This document shows positions 981-17,032 of a stretch of 64,000 nt of DNA, piece by piece; position 1 is the stretch's first letter; each line of letters starts with the position of its first letter. The DNA is from Candidatus Latescibacterota bacterium (GTDB lineage Bacteria; Latescibacterota; UBA2968; UBA8231). The stretch is from assembly GCA_965242865.1 (NCBI GenBank), contig CBDETK010000013.1:1024001-1088000 (forward strand), read 5' to 3'. The notes below the pieces were generated by a model, which made no database searches, was not told where the DNA came from, and worked only from the letters and a program-made list of their open reading frames with translations. The position numbers were made by a program, and so were the translations under genes.

Positions 981-1055
981 GGAAAACCTCCTTTTATGAA
1001 TAAATGACTTGAAAGCATAGAATGTTCATCGACGCCGTCTTTTTTGCTACGAGGC

Positions 1056-1093
1056 GTCATTCCCGCAAACGCGGGAATCCAGTCTTGAATGAC
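1056..1093. repeat. REP-like palindrome GTCATTCCCGC-AAAC-GCGGGAATCCAG
   Basis: ATTCCCGC/GCGGGAAT inverted repeat; a related copy lies at 20993-21052 in the opposite orientation. Confidence 0.75.
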
Positions 1094-1223
1094 GTAAGAT
1101 TGCTGCTATATATCCAATTCATAAAAAACCTCCGTGAAACGGCTCGCTTTAGCGGGCAGAGGGATAGGAGTTGCTTTTTGTGACGGGCGCGAAAGCGTCC
1201 CTGAACAAAAGCAAATATAGCCC

Positions 1224-1252
1224 TTACGTAATGGATTATCGATCACTATACT
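1224..1252 (+). promoter_or_regulatory. Candidate tnpB promoter (possibly leaderless transcript)
   Basis: TTACGT-17 nt-TATACT, ending 7 nt before the tnpB ATG at 1260; identical in copy 2. Confidence 0.35.
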
Positions 1253-1259
1253 TAAGGGT

Positions 1260-2405
1260 ATGGAAACGATACGCACCCTTTCTTGTAAGCTCGCCGTTCC
1301 CCATCCAATCAAAGATCGGATTGAGGCTACGCTTGAAGCGTTTTCCCAAGCCTGCGACTTCGTTGCGGATTGGGGCAACGAGCACAAGAAGCATCGTCAA
1401 TACGACCTGCATAAAGGCTGCTATAAAGCGATACGCGCTGAGTTTGGGTTGTCGGCTAATCTTGCGGTTCGGGCCATTGCCCGGGTCGCGCCTCGACTGG
1501 CCAACACCAAGACGCGCCCCAGCCGCTTTAAGCCGACTTCGATTGACTACGATGCTCGGATTTTCAAGCTCGATGTGGAAAGCGAGACTGTGAGTATCCG
1601 CTTGCTTGATGGCCGGGTAACGCTGGCGATGCAACTCGGCGACTTCCAACGGCAGGCACTGGCGGGTCAAACCCCAACCAGTGCCACACTCAAGAAGGGG
1701 CGCAAGAACCGCTACTACTTGGATGTACAGGTGAAAGAGGATGCGCCCGCACCGCCTTCGGATGCGGATGTCAAGGCTACCCTCGGCGTTGATTTGGGCA
1801 TCCGTCACCTCGCCACTGATTCCGCAGGACACTAGTTTCAGGGAACAGACCTTGCTGACTATCGTTCGCACCGAGCCGATGTTCGGGCTTGGTTGCAAGC
1901 GAAGGCACATCGGGGCACCAAGGCAACGCGCAAAGCCTGCCGCCGTGCCCTTAAACGGCTTTCGGGTCGGGAGCGTCGTCACCAGAAACAGATCAACCAC
2001 GAGATTAGCAAACACTTGGTTTCCTTCGCATTGAAGCGAGGATTGGCCATTGTCTTTGAACAGCTCAAGGGCATCCGCGACCGCTGCCGGGTTCGCAAAG
2101 CGCACCGGCGGAGGTTGAACTCGTGGGCGTTTTACCAGTTGCAGCAGTTTGTTGAATACAAAGCCAAGCAGGCCGGGGTCCGCATGGTCTATATCGACCC
2201 GCGCTATACCTCTCAAACCTGCTCGAACTGTCTGCATATCGGGATACGACGCCAAGATGATTTCGCCTGCAAAGACTGTGGGCACCGTTCCCACGCCGAT
2301 CTCAATGCGGCACGGAACATTGCCCGCTGGGGCCTCGCTGTAATCCGAGGCGAATACTCCCTGCTCTCCTGCCCGCTCCCAAGCGGCGGAAGGGTGGGAG
2401 GGTAA
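1260..2405 (+). pseudogene. tnpB: TnpB RNA-guided nuclease interrupted by an in-frame TAG (1833-1835)
   Basis: Motifs LGVDLG, IVFEQL, YTSQTCSNC, CKDCG and HADLNAARNI. Copy 2 has CAG at the TAG position. Confidence 0.92.
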
Positions 2406-2456
2406 AGCGGACAGCGTTAGCTGTCAGTGCGATTACCAAGGCGTCTATCTGCTAGC
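2290..2456 (+). ncRNA. Predicted TnpB omega/reRNA (tnpB 3' end plus right end; guide from flank CAAGGCGTCTATCTGC...)
   Basis: Established TnpB architecture and the right-end hairpin; the 5' boundary is a guess. Confidence 0.4.
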
Positions 2457-3076
2457 CGCTCAAGGCGTTTCGCCTGAGTCAGAAGGGTTTGGCGCAACCC
2501 CAGCGAGACGTTCCTCTCGCTTATGAGCCGGGCCAAGCTGGCGATCGTACTGGCCCTTCTTGCTATTCTAACATCTGGATGTCGCTCCCTAGCGTAGATG
2601 TGCGCTGGTATTATCCTCGCTCGGTGCGATTTGGGTAACTCAACTAGTTCGGTCGGCGGTATATCTTCCTCGTTGAGAATCGCACCAATCGCAGATTCTT
2701 GCAGGAGCTTCTCAAATACGGTGTATTCCGCTTTGTCCATGAGAAGTTTGGCCTCTTTTTTCTCGTCAGTCGTCCGTGGCGAAATGTCAAAGAAGGGCCA
2801 AACTTCCACTTCTGCTACTTCTACCGGGTCAAGGACGAATTTACCCACCGCATCACTCCTTCTTCCCGTGAGATGGCGACCAATCCGCCCCCGGACCTTC
2901 TCAATGGTCTGCCCGACATAGATGGGCTCCCCCTCATAGTCGTAGAATGCGTAGATACCGCAAAAGGCATTGCCAATTTTGCGTCCTTGCTCGTCTTCCG
3001 TGTCGTAAAATTTCTTTATCTCTTCTTGAATGTCCCTGACATCTTGTGGGGACGATTGCTTGGTTCTTTGAGCCAT
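2417..3076 (-). CDS. GIY-YIG nuclease, putative restriction endonuclease; last codons and stop come from the IS right end
   Basis: GIYAFYDYEGEPIYVGQT...RIGRHL motif; start overlaps the methyltransferase stop. Confidence 0.85.
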   Translation of the reverse strand: MAQRTKQSSPQDVRDIQEEIKKFYDTEDEQGRKIGNAFCGIYAFYDYEGEPIYVGQTIEKVRGRIGRHLTGRRSDAVGKFVLDPVEVAEVEVWPFFDISPRTTDEKKEAKLLMDKAEYTVFEKLLQESAIGAILNEEDIPPTELVELPKSHRARIIPAHIYARERHPDVRIARRASTIASLARLISERNVSLGLRQTLLTQAKRLERLADRRLGNRTDS

Positions 3077-4197
3077 TATGCTTTTACCTCACTCAACTCA
3101 TCAACCACCGGATTGAGATAATGTCGGGCTATCCACTCGACAGCCGATACGCATACGGCGTCGCCAAAACCAAATAGAGCTCTGTTCAATGGTAAGTCTG
3201 GACGGAGCGTGAATTCATCGGCCCCCATTAGGCGGGCGCATTCCCGCGGCGTAAGCAGACGGACGGCATACGCCCCGTGGCCGCCGCGAAAAAGAATTTG
3301 TCGGCCGCTGCCACCCCGCGGCGTTCGCAAACATCCGGCGATACCATCGGTGCGTAGTTCGGCCATGGATCGCTTGTTCCGCACCCGGCGAAAGACCGTG
3401 CCATAAGAATACTTTTTGCCAGCGATCATTTTTTCGGCTATCGCCCGGTGCCGTTGGCTCATCTGGTTCAGCAGGTACTCGGCTCGTTCCTTGCTCCACC
3501 ATTCCTCAACCTCATCCGGCAAGTCTTCGAGCACATCTTCAAGCGTCTGGTCGTTGCCAGTAATTTCTGGCAGCTCCCGAATATGCCATGCCAGTTCGGG
3601 GTGGGTGGCCATAAAATGGGCGAGAGCCTTAGGCCGAGTTTGGCTCGCGATGAGTGCCGGTTCAAGCAGTGCAGGGCCTTTTCGTTTTCCTTGAACGCCC
3701 ACCACAAAGATCCTTGGCCGGCTTTGCGGAACAAACCACGCCGCATTGAGGATAAAGGCATCCACTTGGTAGCCTAGATCGTTCAGGGCCTGTAAGGCAC
3801 AGCGCAAGTCCTCGCCTTTGTGGGAGGTCAAAAAGCCGAGGACATTTTCCAAAAGCACTATCGCCGGCCGGCGCTCGTCCATTTTTTTCAAGACCTTCAC
3901 AAACCCCCAAAAGGCAGAAGACGCTTTGCCGTTTAGCCCCTGTCTGGCCCCGGCAAGCGAGAGATCATTGCAGGGAAAAGAGGCCGTAGCAAGAGTGACC
4001 GACGGCAGCCAAGCCCCTTCCACGTCGTGAATGTCTCCGACGACAAAATGCTCGTCGGCATCCGCGAAGTGGGCCTTGTACATCGCATGCTTTTCCTCGT
4101 CGATATCATTGGCCCAAGCTATATTCCATCCCGCGCGTTCAAGGCCCATTCTCATCAGACCGATACCGGCAAAAAACTCGGCAACCGTTTTTTCCAT
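3076..4197 (-). CDS. DNA (cytosine-5)-methyltransferase
   Basis: EFFAGIG (motif I), SFPCNDLS (IV), LENV (VI), QSRPRIF (VIII), RLLTPRECARLMG, FGDAV (X). Confidence 0.95.
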   Translation of the reverse strand: MEKTVAEFFAGIGLMRMGLERAGWNIAWANDIDEEKHAMYKAHFADADEHFVVGDIHDVEGAWLPSVTLATASFPCNDLSLAGARQGLNGKASSAFWGFVKVLKKMDERRPAIVLLENVLGFLTSHKGEDLRCALQALNDLGYQVDAFILNAAWFVPQSRPRIFVVGVQGKRKGPALLEPALIASQTRPKALAHFMATHPELAWHIRELPEITGNDQTLEDVLEDLPDEVEEWWSKERAEYLLNQMSQRHRAIAEKMIAGKKYSYGTVFRRVRNKRSMAELRTDGIAGCLRTPRGGSGRQILFRGGHGAYAVRLLTPRECARLMGADEFTLRPDLPLNRALFGFGDAVCVSAVEWIARHYLNPVVDELSEVKA

Positions 4198-4247
4198 GGC
4201 GATTTCGCTAGCTCCTCTCCAATGGTCGCTTTCGCCTGAGTCGCCCG

Positions 4248-5876
4248 TCAATCCTCCACCACGTGCAATCGCTGGTTGGCGGCCACATCTTCGAGCACTT
4301 GCACGCCCCCGGCCGGCCAGTGAATTTCCAGCCGCTCAACGCGCTCTGCCGTGCCCAAGCCAAACACCGGGTCGCGCTGGCTGGTCGAGAGAAAGCCCGA
4401 CCCCGCCTTTACTTCCCGGACCTGCCCCTGTCCACCGGCCCATAAATACAGGCGAGCACCGATGCCGTCGCGGTTGCTGTGGCGGCCCTTTAGCGCGACC
4501 GCGAGATAGTGGCCCCCAGTGCCGTCGTTGCGCAGCAGGGCGAAGCGGCGGCCGTTGTTGACGAGGGCAATGTCCAAGTCGCCGTCTTGGTCGATGTCGC
4601 CAAAGGAGGAACCGCGCACCACGTACCAAGCGGCAAAACCCGGGCCGCTCTCAGCGGTCACTTCGCGGAAGACGCCCGCGCCCCGATTGCGAAAGAGCTG
4701 GGCCTGTTGGGCGTAGGTCACCAATTGGTCGTATTCCTCAATGTTGTCGTGGACATGGCCGTTGCCCACAAACAGGTCGAGCTGTCCGTCGTGGTCCGCG
4801 TCGAAAAACCCCGTGCCAAAACCGAGGTAGCTCAGGCTGAGATCGCCGAGGCCGGCCTTGAAGCTGATCTCGGAGTAAAACGAGCCGTCGTTGCGATACA
4901 GCCCGTTGTTTTCCAACTGGTAGTTGGTGACGAAGAGGTCGAGGTCGCTGTCTTGGTCTATGTCGCCGGCATCGACGCCCATGCCCGCTTGGCTGGCCCC
5001 GTCGGCGCTCAGCGCGGTCCCGGCCAGCAAGCCGGTCTCGGCAAAGGAGCCGTCGCCTTGGTTGACGTAGTGGAAATTGGGCGTCAGATCGTTGGCCACG
5101 TATAGGTCGGGGTCGCCGTCTCCGTCAAAGTCGCCCGCCACCGCGCCCAACCCATTGCCGGCGTGCTCAATACCCGCTTGGCGGCTCACCTCGGAAAAGA
5201 CGCCGTGGCCCTCATTGCGGTAGAGGATGTCCTCGGTAGGCGCAAAGACCCTCGGGTCGCAGTAGAAGCGCAAGCCCAAATCCTCGCGGCCGCACCAAGG
5301 CTGTTCGCCCAAGGCAAAGCGGACGTATTGCGCGGCAAAGAGGTCGAGATCGCCGTCGAGATCGTAGTCGAATGCAACCGCGCTGGTGGTCCATCCCGGG
5401 TGGCCGAGCCCGGCCGCGACCGTCGCATCCACATAGCCTCCCTCAACGCGCCGGTAGAGCTGATCCGGCCCCCACGCCGTCAGGTAGAGGTCGGGGCCGC
5501 CGTCGCCATCGTAGTCGGCCGCCGTAACCCCCATGCCGTAGGACGTGCCGGGCGCGCCGGCGGCACTGTCCAGCCGCGCAAAGGCGCGTCCATCGTTGCG
5601 AAAGAGCTGGTTGGAGGCCGTGCCCCGCCCCCGCTCCAAGTCCCCGCTGTTGACCAAGTACAAATCCCAATCGCTGTCCGCGTCGTAGTCGAGAAAGGCA
5701 CTGCCGGCGCCATTGGTCTCGGGCAGGTTCTTGGCGGGCGAGGCCCCGTTGTCGTGGACGAAGTCAATGCCCAATTCGCGGGCGACCTCCACGAAGTGGG
5801 GCTGCCCATAGCTGGTGGCCGCCAGCAGGAGCACGAGGAGCAGGCCCCCCCTGCTATCCCCTGAGCAGCGGCTCAA
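4248..5876 (-). CDS. CRTAC1 / ASPIC-UnbV family FG-GAP repeat secreted protein
   Basis: Repeated DYDxDGDxDL motifs and a C-terminal ASPIC/UnbV domain (NRDGIGARL...FGLG...EIHWP). Start moved to TTG 5876, ahead of the signal peptide. Confidence 0.9.
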   Translation of the reverse strand: MSRCSGDSRGGLLLVLLLAATSYGQPHFVEVARELGIDFVHDNGASPAKNLPETNGAGSAFLDYDADSDWDLYLVNSGDLERGRGTASNQLFRNDGRAFARLDSAAGAPGTSYGMGVTAADYDGDGGPDLYLTAWGPDQLYRRVEGGYVDATVAAGLGHPGWTTSAVAFDYDLDGDLDLFAAQYVRFALGEQPWCGREDLGLRFYCDPRVFAPTEDILYRNEGHGVFSEVSRQAGIEHAGNGLGAVAGDFDGDGDPDLYVANDLTPNFHYVNQGDGSFAETGLLAGTALSADGASQAGMGVDAGDIDQDSDLDLFVTNYQLENNGLYRNDGSFYSEISFKAGLGDLSLSYLGFGTGFFDADHDGQLDLFVGNGHVHDNIEEYDQLVTYAQQAQLFRNRGAGVFREVTAESGPGFAAWYVVRGSSFGDIDQDGDLDIALVNNGRRFALLRNDGTGGHYLAVALKGRHSNRDGIGARLYLWAGGQGQVREVKAGSGFLSTSQRDPVFGLGTAERVERLEIHWPAGGVQVLEDVAANQRLHVVED

Positions 5877-12318: not shown

Positions 12319-13104
12319 CTATTCCTCGCTCGTCCTCGCTCGGACCCAAGCGTCCTCCTGCCGGGCGAGCCGCTGGACCAGGTAGTCGGCGTGCTTGCGC
12401 AGCGGCAAGTACGCCAAGAGGCCGACGAGCGTGGTCTTAAAGGCCAAAACCAAGCCCTCGGCCATGGCGCTGAGGGCCTTAAAGGTCTGGGTCGCCTCGT
12501 CGATCTGGCTCAATTCCTGCGCGGTCAGCAGGATGCCGCAGACCGTGCCCAAGTAGCCGTACAGGGGGATTCTCGCTAGATCGCGGCGGACGTGGGTTAG
12601 CGGGGTGCCGAGAATGCCCACGAGTTCGTCCACCAGCTCCTCGTCCCGGCTCTTGCGGTCGCTGTAGCTGGCAAGCTGACGCTGCCACTCTGACAACTGC
12701 TCCATTCGCTTGCGGCCCAAGGTATTAGGGCTGGTGTCGCCGTGATTCCCCCAAGCCCTTTCCTCGCGGCGAAGGTGCAAACTAATGTGGGCCAAGCTCA
12801 ACAGATGGCCGCCCGCCGCCCACGCGATCAGCGCGTATGAGAGGCGGCCAATCCAAGCAAAAACACTCGCTGGCTGCGGGTTGAAGAACAGGTAATAAGC
12901 GGCCAACGCCCCGACGATACCCCCGGTCAGCAAACCGATGCCGCTGGCGAGGAACCGCAGGCGGGGCACGGTCAGGGAGTACTTTTCGTCGTGCTGGCGC
13001 ATGCGCCGGGCCCGGCGCATCTGCAACCAACTCGCGCTGACGCCGCTGGCCAGCACCAACAGAACGCTGCTGCCTAGGATTAACTCGTCGTTCAAGCGGT
13101 CCAT
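12319..13104 (-). CDS. MotA/TolQ/ExbB proton-channel family protein with extra N-terminal TM helices
   Basis: Core motif IPLYGYLGTVCGI...AMAEGLVLAFKTTLVGL. Confidence 0.85.
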   Translation of the reverse strand: MDRLNDELILGSSVLLVLASGVSASWLQMRRARRMRQHDEKYSLTVPRLRFLASGIGLLTGGIVGALAAYYLFFNPQPASVFAWIGRLSYALIAWAAGGHLLSLAHISLHLRREERAWGNHGDTSPNTLGRKRMEQLSEWQRQLASYSDRKSRDEELVDELVGILGTPLTHVRRDLARIPLYGYLGTVCGILLTAQELSQIDEATQTFKALSAMAEGLVLAFKTTLVGLLAYLPLRKHADYLVQRLARQEDAWVRARTSEE

Positions 13105-14294
13105 CCCTTCGCCCGGAAGAGCTTCCACCACTGCCGACTGACCACCCCTAAGTAGCACAGCAGGCCGGTCGCAATCCCCCACAGTTCCCACGGCACGCTG
13201 CTACCCCTGAGGACGCTCCGAGCAGCCGAGCGAGCCGCCCCCGCCCCGGTCGCACGCCCCTCGCCTTGGGTCGCGCCGCGGCCGGCCGGGGGCGCGTAAT
13301 CTCGCCGGCGGTCTGCGCCCCCGCGCACGGTGCGGCCTACGGCGCGCTGCGGCACCACGTGGGTCGCGCCCTTGAGGGCCTGCTTTTTGGGGAAAACCAA
13401 TTCGCGTTGCGCGGCCGGCAGGGATTCGGTCCAAGCGAGCAGTTTTTTGGCTGCGTCAATGCTTTCGACTTCGGCCAGTTTGTCCGCTTTGCCCAAAGAA
13501 AAAGCCAATCGCCCGCGAATGAACCCCCGATAGAGCACGTCCGAGGTCGGGCTGCGGCGGGCTTGGAGCTTGCGCGCCAATTCGTCGCGTTGCTTTTGCA
13601 GGCGCACCAACCGGCTGACGACCAGATGGGTTTCCATATTCTGCTGCTGCGCGGCCCCGCCCACGCCGGTGAGCGGCCGCCGGCGCGCCGCACGCGCCAA
13701 GTGCCCGGCGTCAAAGCGCGCCTCTAATTCGACCTCGCCAAACAGGGTCGTTCCCCAGATGACTTCGGCCCCGGGAATGTCGGGCAAGCTGTGGTTGTAA
13801 AAACGCGGCTCGGCCGGCCGGCCGGCCACCCGCCAGCGGCCATCGCCGGTGGCCAGCACCCGGCGCAAGCGGCCGCGGCCGTCTTGTAGGTACAGACCGG
13901 CCATAAAGCCGCTTTCGACTCGGTCCGTGTCCCAGCAATGGGCGCGTAGGACATTGGACTTGTGTAGGTACACCGCGGGAATTTCGACTCGGGTCGGGGT
14001 CAGGCGCGTTTCCCCGATCCGCTGCCCATTGAGGAACAGCTCGGCTTCGTCGTCGGCCCAAAACATCAGCACCAGCTTGGAGTTGGCCGGCAAGATGCGG
14101 GGGGTTCCCCGCCGCTTTGCCAATTCGCGCAGCTCGTCCCCCCCGTAGAGGCGAACCAGGGTGTCGATGCTGGCGGATACTTGGTTGTACTGGCGTCTGA
14201 GTGCCACCGCGTCATCGGCCGCCGCGGCCGCCGCCCAGCCGACCCCGCACACCGCCCACGCCAACCAACGCCCCCATCGCGCATAGCCGCTCAT
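13092..14294 (-). CDS. Exported protein with beta-sandwich (ADDxAELFLNG) domain and C-terminal TM anchor
   Basis: Signal peptide (AxA cleavage), a galactose-binding-like motif and C-terminal WGIATGLLCYLGVV. Its ATG abuts IS copy 2. Confidence 0.75.
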   Translation of the reverse strand: MSGYARWGRWLAWAVCGVGWAAAAAADDAVALRRQYNQVSASIDTLVRLYGGDELRELAKRRGTPRILPANSKLVLMFWADDEAELFLNGQRIGETRLTPTRVEIPAVYLHKSNVLRAHCWDTDRVESGFMAGLYLQDGRGRLRRVLATGDGRWRVAGRPAEPRFYNHSLPDIPGAEVIWGTTLFGEVELEARFDAGHLARAARRRPLTGVGGAAQQQNMETHLVVSRLVRLQKQRDELARKLQARRSPTSDVLYRGFIRGRLAFSLGKADKLAEVESIDAAKKLLAWTESLPAAQRELVFPKKQALKGATHVVPQRAVGRTVRGGADRRRDYAPPAGRGATQGEGRATGAGAARSAARSVLRGSSVPWELWGIATGLLCYLGVVSRQWWKLFRAKGWTA

Positions 14295-15277
14295 AAAAAA
14301 CCTTCCGTGAAACTGCTCGCTTTAGCGGGCAGAGGGATAGGAGTTGCTTTTTGTGACGGGCGCGAAAGCGTCCCTGAACAAAAGCAAATATAGCCCTTAC
14401 GTAATGGATTATCGATCACTATACTTAAGGGTATGGAAACGATACGCACCCTTTCTTGTAAGCTCGCCGTTCCCCATCCAATCAAAGATCGGATTGAGGC
14501 TACGCTTGAAGCGTTTTCCCAAGCCTGCGACTTCGTTGCGGATTGGGGCAACGAGCACAAGAAGCATCGTCGCTGCTGAGGATGCGCCCGCACCGCCTTC
14601 GGATGCGGATGTCAAGGCCACCCTCGGCGTTGATTTGGGTCTCCGTCACCTCGCTACTGATTCCGCAGGACACCAGTTTCAGGGAACAGACCTTGCTGAC
14701 TATCGTTCGCACCGAGCCGATGTTCGGGCTTGGTTGCAAGCGAAGGCACATCGGGGCACCAAGGCAACGCGCAAAGCCTGCCGCCGTGCCCTTAAACGGC
14801 TTTCGGGTCGGGAGCGTCGTCACCAGAAACAGATCAACCACGAGATTAGCAAACACTTGGTTTCCTTCGCATTGAAGCAAGGGGTGGCCATTGTCTTTGA
14901 ACAGCTCAAGGGCATCCGCGACCGCTGCCGGGTTCGCAAAGCGCACCGGCGGAGGTTGAACTCGTGGGCGTTTTACCAGTTGCAGCAGTTTGTTGAATAC
15001 AAAGCCAAGCAGGCCGGGGTCCGCATGGTCTATATCGACCCGCGCTATACCTCTCAAACCTGCTCGAACTGTCTGCATATCGGGATACGACGCCAAGATG
15101 ATTTCGCCTGCAAAGACTGTGGGCACCGTTCCCACGCCGATCTCAATGCGGCACGGAACATTGCCCGCTGGGGCCTCGCTGTAATCCGAGGCGAATACTC
15201 CCTGCTCTCCTGCCCGCTCCCAAGCGGCGGAAGGGTGGGAGGGTAAAGCGGACGGCGTTAGCTGTCAGTGCGATTAC
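14295..15277 (+). mobile_element. IS1341-type tnpB element, copy 2 (internal deletion)
   Basis: About a dozen differences from copy 1 outside the deletion; same TCAT target and TTAC right end. Confidence 0.93.
14433..15246 (+). pseudogene. tnpB: TnpB with a 338-bp deletion replaced by GCTGCT (frameshift)
   Basis: Copy-1 bases 1399-1736 are missing at 14572-14577; the RuvC/zinc-finger half is intact. Confidence 0.9.
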
Positions 15278-16044
15278 ATATTGGACTTGGATTGCCCCCC
15301 ATCGACATTGATGCAGGCGCCCGTCACCCATTGCGCTCGGTCGGACGCCAAGAAGGCCACCACATCCGCGACCTCCTCTGGGGAGCCAAAGCGGCCAAAG
15401 GGCAGGTTGGCGTCGATAAAGGCTTGGATTTGCGCTGGATTTTCCTTCATCCGCCGCTCCCAGCTCCCTCCGGGAAAGAGAATGGAACCCGGGGCCACGG
15501 TGTTGACGCGGATGTTCTTTTGCGCTGCTTCAATCGCCAAATTGGCCCCCAAGCTGATCAGCGCGGCCTTGGCGGCATTGTACGCGATAGGCCCTCCGGT
15601 TTCGCGGCCAAAAATCGAGGCGATGTGGACGATGCTGCCGCCCCCGCGCGCTTCGAGCAAGGGCATGGCCGCCCGGCTCACCCGCACGGCCGAGAGAAAG
15701 CTCAAGTTGATGCTGTCGTTCCACTCGGCATCGTCGATCTCGACAAAGGGGGTCCACTTGGCTCCGCCGACGTTGTTTACGACAATGTCGAGGCCGCCAA
15801 AGCGCTGGTTGGCCGCGGCCACCACGGCGATCGCGCCCTCCGGCGTGGTCACATCGTGCGCGGTGGCCTCCACTTCGGCACCGCGGGCAGTTAAGTCGGC
15901 GGCCGCTTCGGCCAGCGCATCCGCGCCGCGGGCACAGATGCAAAGCCGCGCTCCCTCGGCGGCCAAGGCCGCGGCAATGCGCTTGCCAATGCCGCGGCTA
16001 GCCCCGGTAACTAGGGCAATTTTGTCTTTGAGTCCCAGATCCAA
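15274..16044 (-). CDS. SDR family oxidoreductase (stop codon supplied by the IS right end)
   Basis: TGASRGIG, NNVG, YNAAK and VDGG motifs; AAGGAG SD before TTG 16044. Confidence 0.93.
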   Translation of the reverse strand: MDLGLKDKIALVTGASRGIGKRIAAALAAEGARLCICARGADALAEAAADLTARGAEVEATAHDVTTPEGAIAVVAAANQRFGGLDIVVNNVGGAKWTPFVEIDDAEWNDSINLSFLSAVRVSRAAMPLLEARGGGSIVHIASIFGRETGGPIAYNAAKAALISLGANLAIEAAQKNIRVNTVAPGSILFPGGSWERRMKENPAQIQAFIDANLPFGRFGSPEEVADVVAFLASDRAQWVTGACINVDGGQSKSNM

Positions 16045-16045
16045 A

Positions 16046-17032
16046 CTACACTCCTTTCTCAAGGCCCGGCGTCAGCGCGCCGGGATTGGTCGCGAACAGT
16101 GCGATCAAGTAAGCCATGCACAACGCCAACAACACCAAGCCCTTCCAGCGGCTCAACGAATAGCCGTAGCGCATCAACCCGAGCATCGCCACGACGATTG
16201 CCAGCATCCACGGGAACATGAACTGGACCACGTCGGCCGGGACCACCAGCGGGTTGGCCAAGGCCGACGCGCCGGCGATCCAGCAGATGTTGAGGATGTC
16301 GGCCCCGAGGATATTGCCCACGGCCAAAGCCCCTTGGCCTTTGCCAGCCGCGACAATGCAGGTCGCGATCTCGGGGATCGAAGTGCCCAAGGCCACGACC
16401 ACCAAGCCGATGACCACGTCCGGCAGCCCCAACGCCTTGGCCACCACCGGGGTCGCCTCGACGATAAAGTGGCTGCTGACGACCACGCCGGCCAAGCCGC
16501 CGCCAAACAGCAACGCTACCCGCCCGAGGCTGCGCCGGGCGGCCTCCTCCTCGTCCAGCGCGGGGCGCGGCCGCTGCTTCTGCTCCCAGAACGAATATAT
16601 AAGGTATAGGACAAAAAGCCCGACCAACGCGCCGCCCTCCACCCGAGCCAGCGTCCCGTCGGCGGCCATGTACCAAGCCACTAGATCGACGGTGATGAGA
16701 AAAATCGCGGCCGAGCGCAGCACGACGCGGTCGATGGCAATGGCGGCGGGGGCAAAAAGCGCGGCCATGGGCAGGGCCAAGCCGTCGTCGTAAATGACCG
16801 ATCCCACGGCATTGCCCAGCGCCACTTCGGGCGAGTCGCTGAGGGCCGCAGTCACCGAGACCGCCAACTCGGGCGCGGTGGTGCCAATGCCGACGATGAC
16901 GATGCCGATCAAGATCGGGGGGGCGCGGAGATAGCGCGCAATATCAATGGCACCTTCGACCAGATAGTCGGCGCATTTGGCCAGCAGCGCGAAGGATAGG
17001 ACCATCAGGCCCGCGGCCTCCCAGATCCCCAT
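16046..17032 (-). CDS. Calcium/sodium antiporter (YrbG-like, CaCA family)
   Basis: Alpha repeats GTTAPE...GNAVGS and GTSIPE...GNILGA. Confidence 0.92.
   Translation of the reverse strand: MGIWEAAGLMVLSFALLAKCADYLVEGAIDIARYLRAPPILIGIVIVGIGTTAPELAVSVTAALSDSPEVALGNAVGSVIYDDGLALPMAALFAPAAIAIDRVVLRSAAIFLITVDLVAWYMAADGTLARVEGGALVGLFVLYLIYSFWEQKQRPRPALDEEEAARRSLGRVALLFGGGLAGVVVSSHFIVEATPVVAKALGLPDVVIGLVVVALGTSIPEIATCIVAAGKGQGALAVGNILGADILNICWIAGASALANPLVVPADVVQFMFPWMLAIVVAMLGLMRYGYSLSRWKGLVLLALCMAYLIALFATNPGALTPGLEKGV

Follow-up and report, generated by a model that had tools for sequence, protein, structure and literature searches.

The 64,000-nt stretch analysed here, referred to below as the window (G000:C13:1024001-1088000, from a Candidatus Latescibacterota genome with a G+C content of 60.6%), carries two copies of a decayed, non-autonomous, TnpB-only insertion sequence (IS) of the IS200/IS605 family, the second of which (copy 2) now stands between a short-chain dehydrogenase (SDR) gene and the next gene of the same strand, 13092-14294. 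When the whole genome G000 was searched with positions 14295-15277 by BLASTN, three places were found, namely the query, copy 1 and a right-end remnant; copy 1 matches copy 2 in two pieces, with 99.3% and 98.7% identity. The alignment of the two copies sets the boundaries of the element, the identity starting after TCAT on the left and stopping after GATTAC on the right. A nonsense codon in copy 1 and a frame-shifting 331-bp deletion in copy 2 leave both dead. The tnpB gene of copy 1 (1260-2405, 381 codons) has a TAG at 1833-1835, where copy 2 has CAG; that of copy 2 starts at 14433, shifts frame around 14572-14578 and ends after some 49 codons, its C-terminal part extending to a stop at 15244-15246. 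The features of the locus and of related loci are collected in Table 1.

At the copy 2 junction, TCAT was verified directly 5′ of the element at 14291-14294, where an earlier note on this DNA had placed it, and excising 14295-15277 yields ...AAT ATA TGA GC... on the host strand, as that note had read. The same arrangement exists in nature: the 5′ part of 13092-14294 was searched in 30 congeners and 11 loci could be read, seven of which show exactly the reconstructed empty site, with an SDR ending ...QSKSNI* and a TGA that overlaps the next ATG. The remaining four have variant junctions, and the IS is present in none of the 11. Since relatives show the empty site and none carries the IS, the copy 2 insertion is lineage-specific and lies inside an ATGA stop/start overlap. 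With the IS in place, the SDR gene (15274-16062, minus strand) ends ...QSKSNM*, again as described earlier: ATG (M) has taken the place of ATA (I) as the last codon and TAA that of TGA as the stop, with the length unchanged. On the other side of the IS, the N-terminus of the 13092-14294 product is conserved in 11 orthologues.

Table 1. Features of the window and of related loci. Positions without a genome prefix refer to the window; groups A and B are defined in the text.
Feature	Position	Strand	Description
IS copy 2	14295-15277	+	983 bp; TnpB-only IS200/IS605-type; 331-bp internal deletion in tnpB
IS copy 1	1123-2436	+	1314 bp, full length; target TCAT at 1119-1122
Target TCAT of copy 2	14291-14294	+	Host (minus) strand ATGA: downstream ATG overlapping the native SDR stop
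SDR gene	15274-16062	-	adh_short_C2, 194 bits
Downstream host gene	13092-14294	-	400 aa; hydrophobic, signal-like N-terminus; no Pfam family
Terminal TTAC, right end	15274-15277	-	Host strand GTAA; TAA (15276-15274) is the new SDR stop
Shine-Dalgarno (SD)-like block, copy 2 left end	14301-14306	-	GGAAGG, 6 U before the AUG at 14294-14292
Left-end subterminal hairpin	14314-14331	+	Compensatory changes in 10/12 pairs, 13 elements
Right-end subterminal hairpin	15251-15266	+	Presumed omega-RNA scaffold region; compensatory changes in 5/14 pairs, 13 elements
Outward sigma-70-like site, TCGATA-17-TATATT	14387-14415	-	Weak; also 1214-1242 in copy 1
GIY-YIG domain gene	2417-3076	-	Last 5 codons replaced by 6 read from the copy 1 right end
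Elements L118, L120	G029:C1:4686728-4690081, 329268-332618		tnpA (134 aa, 126-128 bits) plus tnpB; autonomous
Group A host gene, HisG equivalog			Residues 4-190 on profile 1-183
Group A host gene, STAS			Residues 7-108
Group A host genes, two of the enolase superfamily			MR_MLE_N from residues 28 and 34 (profile 25 and 28)
Group A host gene, periplasmic binding protein
Group A host genes, PD40, LRR and Reg_prop repeat proteins
Group A host gene, HTH_3 protein
Group A host gene, PhyH			Residues 22-208 on profile 3-212
Group B host gene, LL-diaminopimelate aminotransferase DapL			TIGR03542, 583 bits; residues 3-407 on profile 2-400
Group B host gene, histidinol dehydrogenase HisD			Residues 22-428 on profile 3-410
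Group B host gene, McsA			Residues 1-167 on profile 1-172

The assignment of the element to the TnpB elements of IS200/IS605 type, with insertion 3′ of TCAT and no duplication, stands on its domains, its junctions and the empty site. Read through the TAG, the TnpB of copy 1 matches PF07282 (Cas12f1-like_TNB) with 87.5 bits (cut-off 26.3) and PF01385 (OrfB_IS605) with 32.8 bits (cut-off 30.5), and its closest solved relatives are TnpB/Cas12f-type chains (102 bits). Terminal inverted repeats are absent and subterminal hairpins occur at both ends, as in other IS200/IS605 elements. TCAT lies immediately 5′ of the left end in all 17 junctions of the group designated A below, and the single ATGA at the empty site of seven of the 11 relatives speaks for insertion without target-site duplication. 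As described by Meers et al., the target motif of IS605-type TnpB systems is expected to equal the target-adjacent motif (TAM) of the nuclease; for the present element we infer, by analogy, TCAT as the TAM.

No tnpA is found within the element, where tnpB begins just 137 nt from the left end, and with no tnpA of its own the element is non-autonomous. The Y1_Tnp profile gives just one partial match in G000 (30.5 bits, elsewhere in the genome), none in the related genomes G010, G025 and G003, and one weak partial match in G001 (25.6 bits). Genome G029, by comparison, holds two intact tnpA+tnpB elements with a related, group-B-like left end, located 3′ of CAT; a matching Y1 transposase therefore exists in the genus. 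TnpA may be supplied in trans by these two elements, L118 and L120, of which L120 occupies the same place in an orthologous gene as the TnpB-only element L107 of G006.

The family was surveyed by three routes. A DNA search of 101 relatives gave matches in 19 genomes, and a protein search of 168 genomes in the phylum found TnpB relatives in 32. Scans for the right-end pattern hit 8 of 71 genomes and yielded 12 genome-contig stretches, nine of them, after de-duplication, loci already known and three (L035, L040, L043) unrelated chance matches, together with two metagenome stretches, one of which (L044) was usable; the sample is this phylum. Elements with the right end ...TTAC and a TnpB at least 54% identical form group A, which after de-duplication comprises 17 insertions with a defined left junction, from 10 genomes and one metagenome contig and all at different sites. 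The sites represent independent events of insertion, but features of the element are inherited. Group B has a TnpB 37-42% identical, the right end ...GTTGAC and the target YCAT. Loci were dropped for a truncated left end (L048/L007), for having no left end (L025/L038, L009-L011 and the G000 remnant C13:4545083-4545264), for sharing a site with another locus (L101, at the site of L098) or because their ends were not resolved (L102, L104, L105, L112-L114). L094 and L107 lie away from CAT and were left out of the curated group B set of 21, L117 was left unclassified, and L072 and L115, with the target TTCAC, were dropped as a separate lineage.

In curated group A, the complement of TCAT is a real host start codon in 12 of the 17 insertions. 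ATGA stop/start overlaps account for four of these (copy 2, designated L020, together with L039, L045 and L071); at one further start a TAA abuts the ATG, and at another a 24-nt spacer separates it from the upstream gene. Of the five remaining insertions, copy 1 falls within the final codons of its host gene; in two others the host gene has the same orientation as tnpB and the element lies in its 5′ untranslated region (UTR), at a distance of 2 nt and 20 nt from the ATG; the last two lie 43 nt and 185 nt upstream of a host-strand start. The host open reading frames (ORFs) are real genes, with domains that begin at the N-terminus (Table 1); a Pfam match is absent for the L071 host ORF (82 aa, truncated where the contig ends) and for gene 13092-14294.

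As a null model, the 29,157 TCAT sites of both strands of G000 were compared with gene calls from a home-made codon-usage caller (4,297 genes, 83% coding). By this measure 4.1% of TCAT sites are predicted starts and 0.62% are start/stop overlaps, with starts making up 14.7% of the non-coding or boundary sites. The binomial probability of 12 starts among 17 is 1e-13 against 4.1%, 3e-7 against 14.7% and 7e-4 even against 30%, while that of four overlaps among 17 is 3e-6 against 0.62% of all TCAT sites and 5e-4 against non-coding sites. An automatic classifier (ORF of at least 80 aa, positive coding score, no coding extension upstream) assigns eight of 15 group A insertions to starts, whereas random TCAT sites reach 9.1% (p=1.7e-5), and it overlooks three starts, those of L036, L024 and L070, that are real by their Pfam matches. 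The excess of targets at ATG starts and that at ATGA overlaps are the outcome of the test that the earlier note had proposed, and both agree with it. Since eight of the 12 start insertions are no ATGA overlap, however, the theme is the start codon more than the coupled gene junction as such; copy 1 lies off any coupled junction. Start codons are occupied by eight of the 12 intact copies and four of the five decayed ones, and this similar enrichment argues against slow retention as the sole cause.

What the element brings to such sites can be read from its ends. The right end reads GTAA on the host strand in 15/15 group A elements, so that the conservation which the earlier note had proposed to test holds, and in the frame of the lost TGA a stop follows after at most one codon in every one of the 15; in the other two frames it comes after six codons (12/15) or after 23 to 74 codons. 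A gene that formerly ended xxA-TGA therefore now ends xxG-TAA. This A-to-G change is synonymous, with the upstream protein unaltered, at three of the four overlaps; the exception is copy 2, with its change from I to M.

The left end reads CACGGAAGGTTTTTT-ATG in copy 2 and CACGGAGGTTTTTT-ATG in copy 1, exactly as reported before, and its general host-strand form is (G)GAG(G)-U5-6-AUG, with a median predicted anti-SD duplex of about -7 kcal/mol. The duplex of the copy 2 block with the organism's own 16S tail, which has the canonical CCUCC core, is predicted at -7.1 kcal/mol. Over the last 20 nt, the anti-SD duplex reaches -5.9 kcal/mol or lower in 12 of 15 group A left ends and -3.0 kcal/mol in the other three, compared with medians of -5.8 kcal/mol at predicted starts and -3.45 kcal/mol at random ATGA sites. 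As to the conservation of an SD-like left end, which the earlier note had also proposed to test, a GAG block is found 5-7 nt from the ATG in 15/15, with a weak predicted duplex in those three. Further inward, each hairpin has a tetranucleotide on its 5′ side, GTGA at the left end and GTAA at the right, that is complementary to the cleavage motif of its end (TCAT and TTAC, respectively), and such complementarity between guide and cleavage motif fits the IS608 model. No terminator-like site is predicted on the host strand in either window copy.

The association with starts recurs in group B, where starts account for 10 of 24 insertions by the automatic classifier (versus 8.4%, p=1.2e-5) and 10 of 21 after curation. 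The complete genome G010 has a single copy of dapL, one of the group B host genes, the second-best match being 31% identical with 73.6 bits. Five group B elements (L093, L095, L098, L101 and L103, from G029, G010, G020 and G025) are chimeric, combining a left end near-identical to that of group A with a tnpB about 40% identical and the right end ...GTTGAC, so that ends and tnpB seem to have been exchanged between lineages. As a separate observation, L034 (G013) and L024 (G003) are independent insertions in different species that adjoin the start of one and the same enolase-superfamily orthologue; one sits exactly at the ATG with tnpB facing away, the other 20 nt upstream with tnpB co-directional.

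Taken together, these results confirm the sequence observation of the earlier note and partly support its interpretation; a co-evolution of target and ends toward silent insertion is only inferred from them. In the reading that we favour, with a probability of about 0.55, a TnpA acting in trans inserts the element at TCAT, insertions at start codons and ATGA sites cost little because the element ends supply the lost signals, and such insertions are then retained. For copy 2, the element would have entered single-stranded DNA 3′ of TCAT, inside the ATGA overlap of the SDR gene and its neighbour, by means of a Y1 TnpA that recognises (T)CAT, the same motif serving as the TAM of TnpB. Host transcription would cross the IS in the antisense direction, and ribosomes would start at the original AUG via the leader provided by the left end. 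Insertions at start codons and ATGA overlaps would thereby survive at low cost while those in coding sequence are purged, and after fixation the host gene would come to depend on the left end, favouring its retention. The best indirect evidence for re-established initiation is that intact, single-copy dapL, hisG and hisD genes lie right behind a left end.

A number of results weigh against this reading. Tolerance acting on uniform use of TCAT predicts just ~15-22% of insertions at starts, versus the ~70% seen, which calls for a further cause, be it retention via host dependence, a targeting bias or homing into conserved flanks. The strength of the SD-like block is the same at starts and elsewhere (medians of -6.2 and -5.7 kcal/mol, respectively, over 37 group A and B insertions, p=0.80), and the block is weak or absent (above -4 kcal/mol) in five of 22 start-codon insertions. 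Moreover, two of its four core positions take part in a helix of 4 bp whose other strand is a block 3′ of the left hairpin, and because the paired positions covary (for one pair: GC 6, CG 4, UA 1, AU 1), conservation of the block may be structural. The GTAA end likewise need not be an adaptation, as it would also be required by IS608-type pairing between guide and cleavage motif. Copy 1 lies away from any gene junction, its empty site showing that the GIY-YIG gene formerly extended by five more codons, and the null models rest on a crude home-made gene caller and one genome. Two further candidate features of the family were rejected. The outward promoter is present in only 3 of 14 elements. 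The antisense ORF 14291-14593, which the earlier note had seen to stop at the TGA of the overlap, does exist as a mechanical ORF; its frame differs in copy 1 owing to a 1-nt indel, and it is not conserved, the open stretch ranging from 0 to 415 codons over 15 elements.

Part of this evidence would sit as well with a simpler account, unlikely in our view though the most serious competitor, in which any TCAT is used, purifying selection leaves only insertions at gene boundaries, and the SD-like block and GTAA serve the chemistry of transposition, the host genes being poorly expressed or expressed by other means. Coincidence of this kind would explain why the SD block lies partly within a covarying helix, why GTAA is complementary to a conserved GTAA/TTAC pair around the right-end hairpin, and why SD strength is unrelated to start status. 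A filter of this kind also accommodates the insertions within the final 4-11 codons of genes (copy 1, L074, L094, L100) and in 5′ UTRs (L041, L034, L116, L075), as well as the TCAC-target lineage of another genus, a control whose nine unique sites, judged by eye, are mostly gene 3′ ends and UTRs, with one gene interior and one site near a start. Yet separation of a ribosome-binding site (RBS) from its AUG is normally among the most harmful of non-coding insertions, and here it is the commonest class, even though starts make up just 14.7% of the non-coding or boundary TCAT sites; nor would one expect sites at single-copy dapL, hisG and hisD with all ORFs intact.

That same excess, far above the share of starts among tolerable sites and visible in intact, presumably young copies (8/12), is what would be produced if integration were steered ahead of selection, either by the transposition machinery or by the condition of the DNA where translation is initiated, a less probable explanation than the preceding one. 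The steering could act through an extended target (TCAT, then an A/T-rich run and an SD complement, like the left end) or through local single-strandedness. The native sequence 3′ of the target is indeed often left-end-like (A/T-rich, then CTCC-like), but the flanks have no conserved position outside TCAT, and IS608-type TnpA is known to read just the 4-5 nt motif. Accessibility of single-stranded DNA was rejected as a cause of targeting: the predicted opening energy of TCAT is 0.91 kcal/mol at starts, 1.06 kcal/mol in intergenic and 1.06 kcal/mol in coding DNA (p=0.15 and 0.23), and because it does not separate starts from other sites, this route to a targeting bias is without support. Domestication of TnpB and its guide RNA as a regulator of the neighbouring gene, in the manner of nuclease-dead TldR repressors, would suit an element that adjoins start codons and diverges from the host gene, but is highly improbable given that tnpB is broken in both window copies, that the element is multi-copy, with intact transposon ends next to unrelated genes, that the C-terminal region aligning to RuvC/Zn-ribbon is retained, and that the inserted element separates the TAM on its left from the guide-matching DNA on its right by 1-1.3 kb, leaving its own guide without a contiguous target.

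Returning to rescue by end-supplied signals, it is tempting to go one step further and to propose a TnpB-only IS605 clade specialised on the start codon, its target (T)CAT being complementary to ATG(A), and carrying a portable ribosome-binding leader and, in one lineage, a portable G-TAA stop; this proposal is tentative, and we lean slightly against it. If true, such an element could occupy operons and sites before hisG, hisD and dapL nearly free of cost and would be lost just by precise excision, and its flanks, being conserved coding DNA, would favour TnpB-guided homing into empty alleles, a niche resembling that of homing endonucleases without splicing. If the ends do restore translation signals, this would constitute a third route of self-neutralising insertion, beside IStron splicing and safe-harbour targeting, and would account for the persistence of TnpB without TnpA in operons and beside essential genes. 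For annotation, it would follow that a gene separated from its RBS by an IS is not necessarily dead, and for practical purposes the element would offer a natural compact cassette (stop, cargo, RBS) for ATGA junctions. The question of whether host gene structure shapes IS605 target choice before or after selection thereby becomes directly testable.

Much of this anatomy is shared with IS1341-type elements, ISDra2 and IS608, including the OrfB_IS605 and Zn-ribbon domains of TnpB, the subterminal hairpins and the lack of inverted repeats, and also, with the IS200/IS605 family at large, insertion 3′ of a tetranucleotide without duplication and a presumed guide-RNA scaffold at the right end. Unlike ISDra2 and IS608, the present element has a target, TCAT, that is the complement of ATGA, with ~70% of insertions exactly on start codons; its left end reads an SD and a U-run toward the host gene, its right end reads G-TAA, and it has no tnpA. 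Genomic islands that integrate into tRNA genes restore the tRNA 3′ end, and some IS carry outward promoters. As in those cases, an element end here would replace a host signal lost on insertion; they use site-specific integrases or supply promoters, whereas here a Y1-type single-strand transposon would replace an RBS and a stop. TldR proteins differ in being single-copy and nuclease-dead, with no transposon ends and a fixed target gene, in contrast to a multi-copy element with intact ends.

IStrons, in which an IS605- or IS607-type element is fused to a group I intron, are TnpB-bearing transposons that lower the cost of insertion into host genes (PMC4227781; 10.1101/2023.11.20.567912), as the present element would. 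The likeness is one of outcome only: an Rfam search of window positions 1000-2600 gave no match at E<=1, either to a group I intron or to an omega-RNA family, so there is no ribozyme here, and rescue would rely on DNA and translation signals, not on splicing. The IscB element ISGst5 of G. stearothermophilus has the TAM TTCAT, and thus a target that also ends in TCAT; its nuclease is IscB, and start codons go unmentioned in the passages on it in Meers et al. Full-text literature searches returned no account of a start-codon bias, or of restoration of an RBS or stop, for IS605-type elements, though the supplementary TAM tables of TnpB surveys could contain elements of TCAT type. The insertion pattern is real and apparently undescribed, while the mechanism offered for it is a proposal from sequence.

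Some further observations concern the tnpB gene and the other copies. A conserved TATA(C/T)T box lies about 7 nt before the tnpB ATG with no SD between them (1214-1262 and 14387-14435), and tnpB may be translated from a leaderless mRNA. The third copy in G000, the remnant L046 (G000:C13:4545000-4545264; BLASTN match 4545083-4545264), is heavily deleted, with the right end kept and no recognisable left end; on the opposite strand its right flank resembles a 5′ UTR with an SD-like GAGGA. In L048 (G011:C1, element 3295114-3296295) tnpB is intact and the left end lacks its first ~12 nt, that is, the linker and the SD-like block; it is preceded by sequence resembling another right-end terminus (...GGGATTAC), possibly a nested or tandem remnant.

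None of the DNA contigs from four runs joins across the IS, and thus no empty-site allele was seen. Loose ends of the contigs show the flanks of copy 1. In run X5 (loose ends at 14291 and 15278), contigs of a related population carry the IS with other flanks, and one further flank pair, which was kept out of the counts, resembles an SD/start-codon site. At the copy 1 site, the GIY-YIG gene (2417-3076) is abutted by a C-5 cytosine DNA methyltransferase gene (3076-4251; PF00145, 167 bits), and the two look like a restriction-modification or Vsr-like pair.

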